A DNA stretch of 64,000 nt from Escherichia coli (GTDB lineage Bacteria; Pseudomonadota; Gammaproteobacteria; Enterobacterales; Enterobacteriaceae), in NCBI RefSeq assembly GCF_003334315.1, contig NZ_QOWR01000016.1. One strand, given 5' to 3'. The notes beneath the pieces were generated by a model. That model had not been told where the DNA came from. It searched no databases and worked only from the letters and a program-made list of their open reading frames with translations. The position numbers and the translations under genes were made by a program. Positions 37,584 to 42,515 of the stretch are shown piece by piece. Position 1 is the stretch's first letter, and each line of letters starts with the position of its first letter.

Positions 37584-38213
37584 ATGACAGGTAAGAAGCG
37601 TTCTGCCAGCTCCAGCCGCTGGCTTCAGGAACACTTTAGCGATAAATATGTTCAACAGGCACAGAAAAAGGGGTTACGTTCCCGTGCCTGGTTTAAACTT
37701 GATGAAATACAGCAAAGTGACAAACTCTTTAAACCGGGAATGACGGTTGTCGACCTTGGTGCTGCTCCGGGTGGTTGGTCACAATATGTGGTCACCCAAA
37801 TTGGCGGCAAAGGCCGCATCATCGCTTGCGATCTTTTACCTATGGATCCTATCGTTGGTGTGGACTTTCTTCAGGGCGATTTTCGTGATGAACTGGTGAT
37901 GAAAGCACTGCTGGAGCGCGTTGGCGACAGCAAAGTCCAGGTTGTCATGTCCGATATGGCACCAAACATGAGCGGAACACCGGCGGTGGATATCCCCCGT
38001 GCCATGTATCTGGTGGAACTGGCGCTAGAAATGTGTCGTGATGTATTAGCGCCAGGTGGCAGTTTTGTAGTGAAGGTGTTCCAGGGCGAAGGTTTCGATG
38101 AGTATCTAAGGGAAATTCGCTCCCTGTTTACGAAGGTTAAAGTTCGTAAGCCGGACTCTTCTCGTGCACGTTCGCGGGAAGTGTATATTGTAGCGACCGG
38201 GCGTAAACCCTAA
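37584..38213 (+). CDS. rlmE: 23S rRNA (uridine2552-2'-O)-methyltransferase
   Basis: 209-aa ORF; SAM-binding motif [13 protein letters not shown]. Confidence 0.97.
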
Positions 38214-38312
38214 CCGGGAGATTTCAGACGAAAGTTTGAAAGATGCTGGATATAGAGTATCCTGACGCTGTTTTTAACACAGTTGTAATAAGAGGTTAAT
38301 CCCTTGAGTGAC

Positions 38313-40247
38313 ATGGCGAAAAACCTAATACTCTGGCTGGTCATTGCCGTTGTGCTGATGTCAGTATTCCAGAGCTTTGGGCCCAGCGAGTCTAATGGCC
38401 GTAAGGTGGATTACTCTACCTTCCTACAAGAGGTCAATAACGACCAGGTTCGTGAAGCGCGTATCAACGGACGTGAAATCAACGTTACCAAGAAAGATAG
38501 TAACCGTTATACCACTTACATTCCGGTTCAGGATCCGAAATTACTGGATAACCTGTTGACCAAGAACGTCAAGGTTGTCGGTGAACCGCCTGAAGAACCA
38601 AGCCTGCTGGCTTCTATCTTCATCTCCTGGTTCCCGATGCTGTTGCTGATTGGTGTCTGGATCTTCTTCATGCGTCAAATGCAGGGCGGCGGTGGCAAAG
38701 GTGCCATGTCGTTTGGTAAGAGCAAAGCGCGCATGTTGACGGAAGATCAGATCAAAACGACCTTTGCTGACGTTGCGGGCTGCGACGAAGCAAAAGAAGA
38801 AGTTGCTGAACTGGTTGAGTATCTGCGCGAGCCGAGCCGCTTCCAGAAACTCGGCGGTAAGATCCCGAAAGGCGTCCTGATGGTCGGTCCTCCGGGTACC
38901 GGTAAAACGCTGCTGGCGAAAGCGATTGCAGGCGAAGCGAAAGTTCCGTTCTTTACTATCTCCGGTTCTGACTTCGTAGAAATGTTCGTCGGTGTGGGTG
39001 CATCCCGTGTTCGTGACATGTTCGAACAGGCGAAGAAAGCGGCACCGTGCATCATCTTTATCGATGAAATCGACGCCGTAGGCCGCCAGCGTGGCGCTGG
39101 TCTGGGCGGTGGTCACGATGAACGTGAACAGACTCTGAACCAGATGCTGGTTGAGATGGATGGCTTCGAAGGTAACGAAGGTATCATCGTTATCGCCGCG
39201 ACTAACCGTCCGGACGTTCTCGACCCGGCCCTGCTGCGTCCTGGCCGTTTCGACCGTCAGGTTGTGGTTGGCTTGCCAGATGTTCGCGGTCGTGAGCAGA
39301 TCCTGAAAGTTCACATGCGTCGCGTACCATTGGCACCCGATATCGACGCGGCAATCATTGCCCGTGGTACTCCTGGTTTCTCCGGTGCTGACCTGGCGAA
39401 CCTGGTGAACGAAGCGGCACTGTTCGCTGCTCGTGGCAACAAACGCGTTGTGTCGATGGTTGAGTTCGAGAAAGCGAAAGACAAAATCATGATGGGTGCG
39501 GAACGTCGCTCCATGGTGATGACGGAAGCGCAGAAAGAATCAACGGCTTACCACGAAGCGGGTCATGCGATTATCGGTCGCCTGGTGCCGGAACACGATC
39601 CGGTGCACAAAGTGACGATTATCCCACGCGGTCGTGCGCTGGGTGTGACTTTCTTCTTGCCTGAGGGCGACGCAATCAGCGCCAGCCGTCAGAAACTGGA
39701 AAGCCAGATTTCTACGCTGTACGGTGGTCGTCTGGCAGAAGAGATCATCTACGGGCCGGAACATGTTTCTACCGGTGCGTCCAACGATATTAAAGTTGCG
39801 ACCAACCTGGCACGTAACATGGTGACTCAGTGGGGCTTCTCTGAGAAATTGGGTCCACTGCTGTACGCGGAAGAAGAAGGTGAAGTGTTCCTCGGCCGTA
39901 GCGTAGCGAAAGCGAAACATATGTCCGATGAAACTGCACGTATCATCGACCAGGAAGTGAAAGCACTGATTGAGCGTAACTATAATCGTGCGCGTCAGCT
40001 TCTGACCGACAATATGGATATTCTGCATGCGATGAAAGATGCTCTCATGAAATATGAGACTATCGACGCACCGCAGATTGATGACCTGATGGCACGTCGC
40101 GATGTACGTCCGCCAGCGGGCTGGGAAGAACCAGGCGCTTCTAACAATTCTGGCGACAATGGTAGTCCAAAGGCTCCTCGTCCGGTTGATGAACCGCGTA
40201 CGCCGAACCCGGGTAACACCATGTCAGAGCAGTTAGGCGACAAGTAA
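38313..40247 (+). CDS. ftsH: ATP-dependent zinc metalloprotease FtsH (AAA+)
   Basis: Track ORF starts TTG 38304 (MSDMAKNL); ATG 38313 gives 644 aa; Walker A GPPGTGKT, Walker B IIFIDEID, zinc motif HEAGH; AAGAGG SD is 9 nt from the TTG and 18 nt from the ATG, so start uncertain by 3 codons. Confidence 0.93.
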
Positions 40248-40281
40248 GTTCCCGCATCAGATGACTGTATTTGTACCGAAA

Positions 40282-40310
40282 ACCCCGGGGCGTGCTCCGG
40301 GGTTTTTTCT
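40282..40310 (+). terminator. intrinsic terminator after ftsH
   Basis: ccccgg ggcgtgct ccgggg stem followed by tttttt (40303-40308). Confidence 0.7.
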
Positions 40311-40336
40311 TATCAATTCATACCAGGGATAACATC

Positions 40337-41185
40337 ATGAAACTCTTTGCCCAGGGTACTTCACTGGACCTTAGCCATCCTCACGTAATGGGGATCCTCA
40401 ACGTCACGCCTGATTCCTTTTCGGATGGTGGCACGCATAACTCGCTGATAGATGCGGTGAAACATGCGAATCTGATGATCAACGCTGGCGCGACGATCAT
40501 TGACGTTGGTGGCGAGTCCACGCGCCCAGGGGCGGCGGAAGTTAGCGTTGAAGAAGAGTTGCAACGTGTTATTCCTGTGGTTGAGGCAATTGCTCAACGC
40601 TTCGAAGTCTGGATCTCGGTAGATACATCCAAACCAGAAGTCATCCGTGAGTCAGCGAAAGTTGGCGCTCACATTATTAATGATATCCGCTCCCTTTCCG
40701 AACCTGGCGCTCTGGAGGCGGCTGCAGAAACCGGTTTACCGGTTTGTCTGATGCATATGCAGGGAAATCCAAAAACCATGCAGGAAGCTCCGAAGTATGA
40801 CGATGTCTTTGCAGAAGTGAATCGCTACTTTATTGAGCAAATAGCACGTTGCGAGCAGGCGGGTATCGCAAAAGAGAAATTGTTGCTCGACCCCGGATTC
40901 GGTTTCGGTAAAAATCTCTCCCATAACTATTCATTACTGGCGCGCCTGGCTGAATTTCACCATTTCAACCTGCCGCTGTTGGTAGGTATGTCACGAAAAT
41001 CGATGATTGGGCAGCTGCTGAACGTGGGGCCGTCCGAGCGCCTGAGCGGTAGTCTGGCCTGTGCGGTCATTGCCGCAATGCAAGGCGCGCACATTATTCG
41101 TGTTCATGACGTCAAAGAAACCGTAGAAGCGATGCGGGTGGTGGAAGCCACTCTGTCTGCAAAGGAAAACAAACGCTATGAGTAA
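40337..41185 (+). CDS. folP: dihydropteroate synthase
   Basis: Track ORF 40271..41185 begins at a TTG inside the ftsH terminator; ATG 40337 ([32 protein letters not shown], 282 aa) with AGGGA 7 nt upstream. Confidence 0.93.
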
Positions 41186-42515
41186 TCGTAAATATTTCGG
41201 TACCGATGGGATTCGTGGTCGTGTAGGGGATGCGCCGATCACACCTGATTTTGTGCTTAAGCTGGGTTGGGCCGCGGGTAAAGTGCTGGCGCGCCACGGC
41301 TCCCGTAAGATCATTATTGGTAAAGACACGCGTATTTCTGGCTATATGCTGGAGTCAGCACTGGAAGCGGGTCTGGCGGCAGCGGGCCTTTCCGCACTCT
41401 TCACTGGCCCGATGCCAACACCGGCCGTGGCTTATCTGACGCGTACCTTCCGCGCAGAGGCCGGAATTGTGATATCTGCATCGCATAACCCGTTCTACGA
41501 TAATGGCATTAAATTCTTCTCTATCGACGGCACCAAACTGCCGGATGCGGTAGAAGAGGCCATCGAAGCGGAAATGGAAAAGGAGATCAGCTGCGTTGAT
41601 TCGGCAGAACTGGGTAAAGCCAGCCGTATCGTTGATGCCGCGGGTCGCTATATCGAGTTTTGCAAAGCCACGTTCCCGAACGAACTTAGCCTCAGTGAAC
41701 TGAAGATTGTGGTGGATTGTGCAAACGGTGCGACTTATCACATCGCGCCGAACGTGCTGCGCGAACTGGGGGCGAACGTTATCGCTATCGGTTGTGAGCC
41801 AAACGGTGTAAACATCAATGCCGAAGTGGGGGCTACCGACGTTCGCGCGCTCCAGGCTCGTGTGCTGGCTGAAAAAGCGGATCTCGGTATTGCCTTCGAC
41901 GGCGATGGCGATCGCGTGATTATGGTTGACCATGAAGGCAATAAAGTCGATGGCGATCAGATCATGTATATCATCGCGCGTGAAGGTCTTCGTCAGGGCC
42001 AGCTGCGTGGTGGCGCTGTGGGTACATTGATGAGCAACATGGGGCTTGAACTGGCGCTGAAACAGTTAGGAATTCCATTTGCGCGCGCGAAAGTGGGTGA
42101 CCGCTACGTACTGGAAAAAATGCAGGAGAAAGGCTGGCGTATCGGTGCAGAGAATTCCGGTCATGTGATCCTGCTGGATAAAACTACTACCGGTGACGGC
42201 ATCGTTGCTGGCTTGCAGGTGCTGGCGGCTATGGCACGTAACCATATGAGCCTGCACGACCTTTGCAGCGGCATGAAAATGTTCCCGCAGATTCTGGTTA
42301 ACGTACGTTACACCGCAGGTAGCGGCGATCCACTTGAGCATGAGTCAGTTAAAGCCGTGACCGCAGAGGTTGAAGCTGCGCTGGGCAACCGTGGACGCGT
42401 GTTGCTGCGTAAATCCGGCACCGAACCGTTAATTCGCGTGATGGTGGAAGGCGAAGACGAAGCGCAGGTGACTGAATTTGCACACCGCATCGCCGATGCA
42501 GTAAAAGCCGTTTAA
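41178..42515 (+). CDS. glmM: phosphoglucosamine mutase
   Basis: 445-aa ORF; phosphoserine loop ISASHNP; overlaps folP end by 8 nt. Confidence 0.97.

Follow-up and report, generated by a model that had tools for sequence, protein, structure and literature searches.

The closest described system to the locus analyzed here is ftsH (hflB, mrsC) itself, for which initiating ribosomes have been mapped with the use of tetracycline (TetRP) by Nakahigashi et al. 2016 (PMC4909307). Specifically, TetRP depth was 138, 157 and 143 at an in-frame TTG as compared with 1.1, 1.8 and 5.2 at the annotated ATG, a ratio of 47–129 that puts the signal at the ATG at about 1–2% of that at the TTG (PMC4909307). In the same study, ftsH is entered with a new start, a TTG at −9, and a product beginning MSDMAKNL (PMC4909307, Table S2), is classed as a 'new site' rather than as 'multiple', and is given as confirmed by a lacZ fusion; mutating the TTG reduces β-galactosidase more than mutating the ATG, a comparison that the text gives without values. 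The UUG start is credited there to two earlier reports (Wang et al. 1998, J Bacteriol 180:1929; Akiyama 1999, Biochemistry 38:11693), and the literature as cited does not report an N-terminus of MAKNLILW, the observation that the first-pass annotation of this DNA had named as counting against the TTG. The initiation-site profiling which that annotation had proposed was already in print, with its signal at the TTG (PMC4909307), and an N-terminal FtsH peptide is absent from the TRAINSPOTTER supplements and from the N-terminal peptide table of PMC4909307. Trypsin would release (M)SDMAK from the longer form or (M)AK from the shorter one; peptides of this size escape shotgun detection, which probably accounts for their absence from proteomic data.

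With respect to other genes, potA, rfaQ and yedI share with ftsH a database AUG, a nearby UUG or GUG, and reporter results that favor the non-AUG codon (PMC4909307). What sets ftsH apart from these three is that its start was reported approximately 17 years before the profiling study and has still not been adopted. The pnp and rimP genes also have UUG starts led by a Shine–Dalgarno (SD) sequence but, unlike ftsH, are already annotated from TTG in RefSeq. Both are found in the same E. coli region (rimP, L083 29920; pnp, L083 36758), so the annotation pipeline does accept UUG starts there. As compared to the published ftsH UUG start, the locus in our window, which is the whole 64,000-nucleotide stretch of E. 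coli DNA that was analyzed, shows no biological difference: the codon is the same, it lies 9 nt upstream of the ATG, and the product is the same 647-residue protein. What is added here is comparative evidence together with an observation on the NCBIfam model NF008004. We consider it almost certain that ftsH translation starts at UUG 38304, within an ordinary SD-led initiation region, and gives the 647-residue product. The motifs, pairing energies, spacing, conservation and homologue register described below come from our own analysis, and ribosome occupancy and reporter activity are taken from the literature.

The window carries greA, yhbY, rlmE, ftsH, folP and glmM, and its plus strand at the ftsH start reads GTAATAAGAGGTTAATCCCTTGAGTGACATGGCG (Table 1). 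Direct read-out of the sequence places the TTG at 38304–38306 and the ATG at 38313–38315, exactly where the first-pass annotation had put them, and translation likewise returns the lengths that it gave, 647 residues (MSDMAKNL...) from the TTG and 644 from the ATG. Its location for the AAGAGG motif, on the other hand, needs a small correction. The span 38289–38294 to which the motif had been assigned reads TAAGAG, and the hexamer, which has a single local occurrence, occupies 38290–38295. Since it sits one base to the right of the claimed position, the gaps are 8 nt to the TTG and 17 nt to the ATG rather than 9 and 18 nt. In the ORF listing, the first start codon to follow the upstream stop is TTG 38304, and no further stop intervenes in frame. 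A start still further upstream was considered and ruled out by the in-frame TAA (38289–38291) five codons before the TTG, which leaves no room for an ftsH start further 5′. The 647-residue product scores 1509.6 bits against NF008004, an FtsH equivalog model (cut-off 1008), and 892.5 bits against TIGR01241 (cut-off 600), and its residues 4–129 are identical to PDB 7vhp_A. The masses that we computed for FtsH were 71,041, 70,909 or 70,707 Da; a value of about 70,996 Da reported for the Wang 1998 protein equals none of them and was not used as evidence.

Table 1. Coordinates of features at the ftsH start and of the full coding sequence, in window positions
Feature	Position	Strand	Basis or remark
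In-frame TAA stop	38289..38291	+	Closes the ftsH frame upstream; sequence and ORF listing
SD, AAGAGGU	38290..38296	+	GAGGU core at 38292–38296 pairs with the 16S rRNA 3′ end
Spacer UAAUCCC, 7 nt	38297..38303	+	Length kept, sequence not; entropy ~1.0–1.6 bits per position
UUG initiation codon, fMet1 of 647-residue FtsH	38304..38306	+	Invariant in 77 sequences; TetRP and lacZ (PMC4909307)
Codons 2–3, AGT Ser and GAC Asp	38307..38312	+	Coding; absent from the database protein
ATG, database-annotated start; internal Met4	38313..38315	+	RefSeq CDS; homologue register
Full ftsH CDS including stop, 647 codons; AAA+/M41 zinc metalloprotease	38304..40247	+	ORF and NF008004/TIGR01241

In terms of ribosome binding, pairing with the 16S rRNA 3′ end (ACCUCCUUA) was scored in a sliding window of 8 nt. 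The GAGGU at 38292–38296 (−6.5 kcal/mol) was the sole strong match to the anti-SD over the 40 upstream nucleotides, and it lies 7 nt from the TTG and 16 nt from the ATG (6 and 15 by the script's own measure). The spacing was calibrated with the same script on 39 neighboring annotated genes, 31 of which have an SD at least as strong as −4 kcal/mol. The gaps of these 31 fall mostly at 5–10 nt and just one exceeds 14, values against which the 6 nt of the TTG and the 15 nt of the ATG can be set directly. The earlier suggestion that SD spacing is better for the TTG than for the ATG is thus borne out both by pairing energy and by the calibration. The AAGAGG hexamer itself is frequent, with 15 and 9 occurrences on the two strands of the window, so the informative signal is its fixed distance to the TTG, seen in all 77 TTG-bearing sequences described below, and not its mere presence. 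An AAGAGGT-type SD like that of ftsH also precedes greA, at a spacing equal to that between the ftsH SD and TTG.

These measurements bear on the proposal that initiation occurs solely at ATG 38313, giving 644 residues, with the upstream TTG and SD being coincidental. ATG is generally the stronger start codon, RefSeq, UniProt, PDB and NCBIfam all carry the 644-residue form, and a GAG formed within the TTG-AGT codons lies 4 nt before the ATG; pairing of that GAG amounts to only −2.2 kcal/mol, and the distance of 16–17 nt from the strong SD to the ATG is beyond the usual range. Predicted folding of the mRNA over 38250–38350 revealed no significant structure (−21.5 kcal/mol, z = −0.74) and distinguished neither codon.

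To place the start in a comparative context, we scanned one genome per species, which yielded 80 loci, from Enterobacterales, Vibrionales, Aeromonadales, Alteromonadales, Succinivibrionaceae and Methylophaga, and, with the window, 81 sequences from about 40 named genera. The pattern TTG-AGY/AAY-GAY-ATG was present in 77 of the 81 aligned sequences, with both the TTG and the ATG (Met4) invariant in those 77. Upstream of the TTG, GAGG is 83–99% conserved among the TTG-bearing sequences, and the best SD falls 6–7 nt before the TTG (script measure) in every one of the 77, at a median of −6.3 kcal/mol. The distance stays constant although the sequence of the 8 nt separating GAGG from TTG varies freely. 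In 70 of the 77, moreover, the interval from the upstream stop to the ATG contains no in-frame start codon other than the TTG.

The positional entropies, calculated over the 71 distinct TTG-bearing sequences, fall from 1.40 bits at −10 to 0 at each base of the TTG and then follow the codons, with values of 0, 0.25 and 0.92 for codon 2 and of 0, 0 and 0.95 for codon 3, a third-position pattern that runs on into the gene. Nearly all of the changes in codons 2 and 3 are indeed at third positions (AGT/AGC, GAC/GAT), the exceptions being three Ser-to-Asn codons. Substitution of the three-periodic, coding type therefore begins at the TTG, 9 nt upstream of the ATG, which weighs against initiation at the ATG alone. 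A few positions downstream, internal Leu codons make use of all six synonyms and the TTG never varies, which indicates that it acts as a start codon rather than as a codon for Leu. The same data bear on whether the TTGAGYGAY block might be a non-coding regulatory RNA or DNA element of the 5′ untranslated region, for which its high conservation and its location directly upstream of the annotated start could be cited. Variation that is nearly confined to third positions, with three exceptions that turn Ser into Asn, is not what such an element would lead one to expect, and it also has to face the lack of significant predicted RNA structure noted above and distant homologues that hold the amino acid register while their DNA differs. 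We regard it as vanishingly unlikely.

The four sequences lacking the TTG all come from Succinivibrionaceae. In three of these the best SD precedes the ATG by 3 nt; in the fourth, a GGAG precedes it by approximately 10 nt. Judged from their sequences, these loci are a natural control for the TTG start.

Beyond this group, the N-terminal 167 residues served as the query of an exhaustive search. It returned 150 representatives, roughly 40–60% identical, and the motif [K/R]-N-x-x-x-W was recognizable in 98 of them. Among these motif-bearing proteins, 51 are in the register of MSDMAKNL and 23 in that of MAKNLILW. The longer register takes the form M-[N/S]-[D/N]-x-x-K-N, with N or S at position 2, and position 4 is Met in 16 of the 51 same-register homologues. 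The other 35 have F, L, V, I, N, Q, R, S or H there, most of which cannot be start codons. Because gene callers choose starts by their own models, called N-termini were not relied on alone; we used cases in which position 4 cannot start and checked the DNA at seven loci. Five of these (L086, L087, L088, L089 and L090) carry ATG, GTG or TTG as the codon that corresponds to the TTG of E. coli. A sixth (L085, GCA_004352575.1) reads TTG-AAC-GAC-ATG at 392–403, yet its gene is called from the ATG. The remaining lineage (L084) has a true MAKNL start, which is preceded by a GGAGG of its own and, shortly before it, by a stop in the same frame. By this alignment, the three-residue N-terminal extension is the common form in the homologue sample and Met4 of the E. 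coli protein is internal.

The residues at position 4 that cannot initiate are, in turn, difficult to reconcile with a start at the ATG only. Considered alongside the TetRP signal at that codon and the concurring lacZ fusions (PMC4909307), they leave exclusive use of ATG 38313 extremely unlikely. The SD, the conservation, the homologue register and the published profiling and lacZ fusions all agree on the TTG as the true start of ftsH, which was the preference expressed in the first-pass annotation.

A further possibility is that there are two isoforms, a major one of 647 residues from the UUG and a physiologically relevant one of 644 residues from the AUG. Both codons are invariant in the 77 sequences, TetRP depth at the ATG (1.1–5.2) is low but above zero, and the lacZ fusions are described as showing a 'greater effect' when the TTG is mutated, which is not the same as zero initiation at the ATG (PMC4909307). 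In addition, an M4A substitution lowers FtsH expression, although the authors of that study explain this by instability (PMC13039401). Set against these points are the 47- to 129-fold TTG:ATG ratio and the classification as a single new site (PMC4909307), the lack of an adequate SD for the ATG, and the occurrence of Leu, Phe, Val, Gln or other residues at position 4 in most distant homologues; the replacement of Met4 in these indicates that a second start is not a feature of the family. A dual-start gene of the infB type (IF2 alpha and beta) would have substantial initiation at both codons, and the ftsH ribosome signal and SD argue against such an arrangement here. A physiologically relevant second isoform therefore seems very unlikely to us. 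A small amount of initiation at AUG-4 is another matter and may occur, since the TetRP signal there is small but greater than zero and lacZ values are absent from the text. The invariance of the ATG in the 77 sequences and the weak GAG 4 nt before it are likewise compatible with such minor use.

Returning to the preferred UUG start, the 3′ end of 16S rRNA in the 30S subunit would pair with GAGGU 38292–38296, and this pairing would set UUG 38304, 7 nt downstream, in the P site. Initiator tRNA would then decode the UUG as fMet to give the 647-residue FtsH, in which the ATG at 38313 would specify an internal residue, Met4, where the first transmembrane helix begins, with initiation there being marginal if it happens at all. 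Met1 is probably removed from the protein, as residue 2 is Ser.

Residue numbering in specialist work on FtsH follows the longer form. A 2026 study of FtsH (PMC13039401), the source of the M4A result, numbers residues as in Wang et al. and describes H417Y. Only in the 647-residue numbering does the first His of HEAGH fall at 417; in the 644-residue scheme it is 414. In Akiyama's 1999 work, FtsH is said to cleave itself between Met-640 and Ser-641. These residue numbers fit the sequence ...NTM|SEQLGDK, again in the 647-residue numbering only. Specialists on FtsH use the 647-residue numbering, which agrees with a native N-terminus encoded at the UUG, and the UUG start was already known, having been settled experimentally in 1998–99, according to the reports as credited in the profiling study, and again in 2016.

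The databases present a different picture. RefSeq starts ftsH at the ATG (WP_001107467.1), the 644-residue sequence carries the UniRef representative FTSH_ECOLI, and the full-length PDB chains 7vhp, 7wi3, 9cz2 and 7wi4 have 644 residues. The region is present in all 5,426 complete E. coli genomes at an identity of at least 98.8%, and the two E. coli records that we inspected both annotate a 644-residue FtsH. The annotated length is 644 residues in Klebsiella and Salmonella as well as in E. coli, as opposed to 647 in NCBI for Hafnia (P0005). With respect to how the shorter form persists, the 644 positions of NF008004 align to residues 4–647 of the TTG product, and a model of this length probably leads automated pipelines to call the start at the ATG, spreading the short form to new E. 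coli genomes. The 644-residue FtsH of RefSeq, UniProt (P0AAI3) and PDB is a self-propagating annotation convention and an error. Because this database protein is three residues short, two numbering schemes coexist in the literature (for example, H414 versus H417 and K198 versus K201), and constructs, N-terminal tags and structural models based on the ATG omit native residues as well as the native start context. The biological change is small, as the protease, which is essential and well studied, gains three residues on its short N-terminal tail in the cytoplasm, and the practical value of the correction lies in database curation rather than in new biology.

One could go further and ask whether the UUG is a tuned feature, that is, a weak start selected to cap or condition FtsH synthesis, with the AUG of codon 4 as a minor back-up. 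The basis for this reading is that the UUG has not changed to AUG or GUG in any of the 77 sequences, from about 40 genera, even as neighboring synonymous sites have changed often. Such tuning might act, for instance, via discrimination by IF3 or during heat shock. The infC gene, which encodes IF3, has a conserved non-AUG start (AUU) that is used for autoregulation. Like the UUG of ftsH, it is a weak non-AUG start kept over long evolutionary distances. Fixation of the ftsH UUG is seen in the Enterobacterales–Vibrionales–Alteromonadales–Aeromonadales clade together with Methylophaga, whereas more distant relatives have ATG, GTG or TTG at the homologous start. A regulatory role for the UUG akin to that of infC would be speculative, and we judge the tuned reading as a whole to be rather unlikely.

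Several observations were also made on the genes around ftsH. E. coli O121 strain GTVSS-020 (L002, NZ_CP176678.1) is the only one of the 5,426 complete E. coli genomes with less than 99% identity over 38100–38500. It lacks four nucleotides (CGAC, window positions 38194–38197) toward the 3′ end of rlmE, and the resulting frameshift lengthens the RlmE gene (WP_409518448.1) to 678 nt from 630. The frameshift may be genuine or may stem from an error in the assembly.

The rlmE gene of the E. coli window ends in ...GRKP-TAA and is separated from ftsH by 90 nt (38214–38303). In the aligned sequences from outside Enterobacteriaceae (L012, L021, L032, L035 and others), rlmE ends instead in ...GRKL-TAG some 45–50 nt before the ftsH TTG, which makes the E. 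coli intergenic region approximately 40–45 nt longer. Within this region lies a promoter-like TTGAAA-16 nt-TATCCT (window 38236–38263), approximately 40 nt upstream of the TTG, and its TATCCT hexamer lines up with TACCCT, a conserved block that directly follows the stop codon of rlmE in many other genera. The element could be a candidate ftsH-proximal promoter; one promoter-like site was found in the intergenic region as against 1.1 expected from shuffled sequences, a number that is not above chance.

Among the members of the FtsH protein clusters built at 90% identity (those for 38304–40244 and 38313–40244) are RlmE, FolP and GlmM, the products of neighboring genes, which looks like a clustering artefact rather than biology, perhaps arising from fused or read-through ORFs. 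Downstream of ftsH, the first start in the folP ORF is a TTG at 40271 (304 residues, 40271–41185), as compared with a RefSeq ATG at about 40337 (282 residues), and glmM (41178–42515) overlaps the end of folP by 8 nt.
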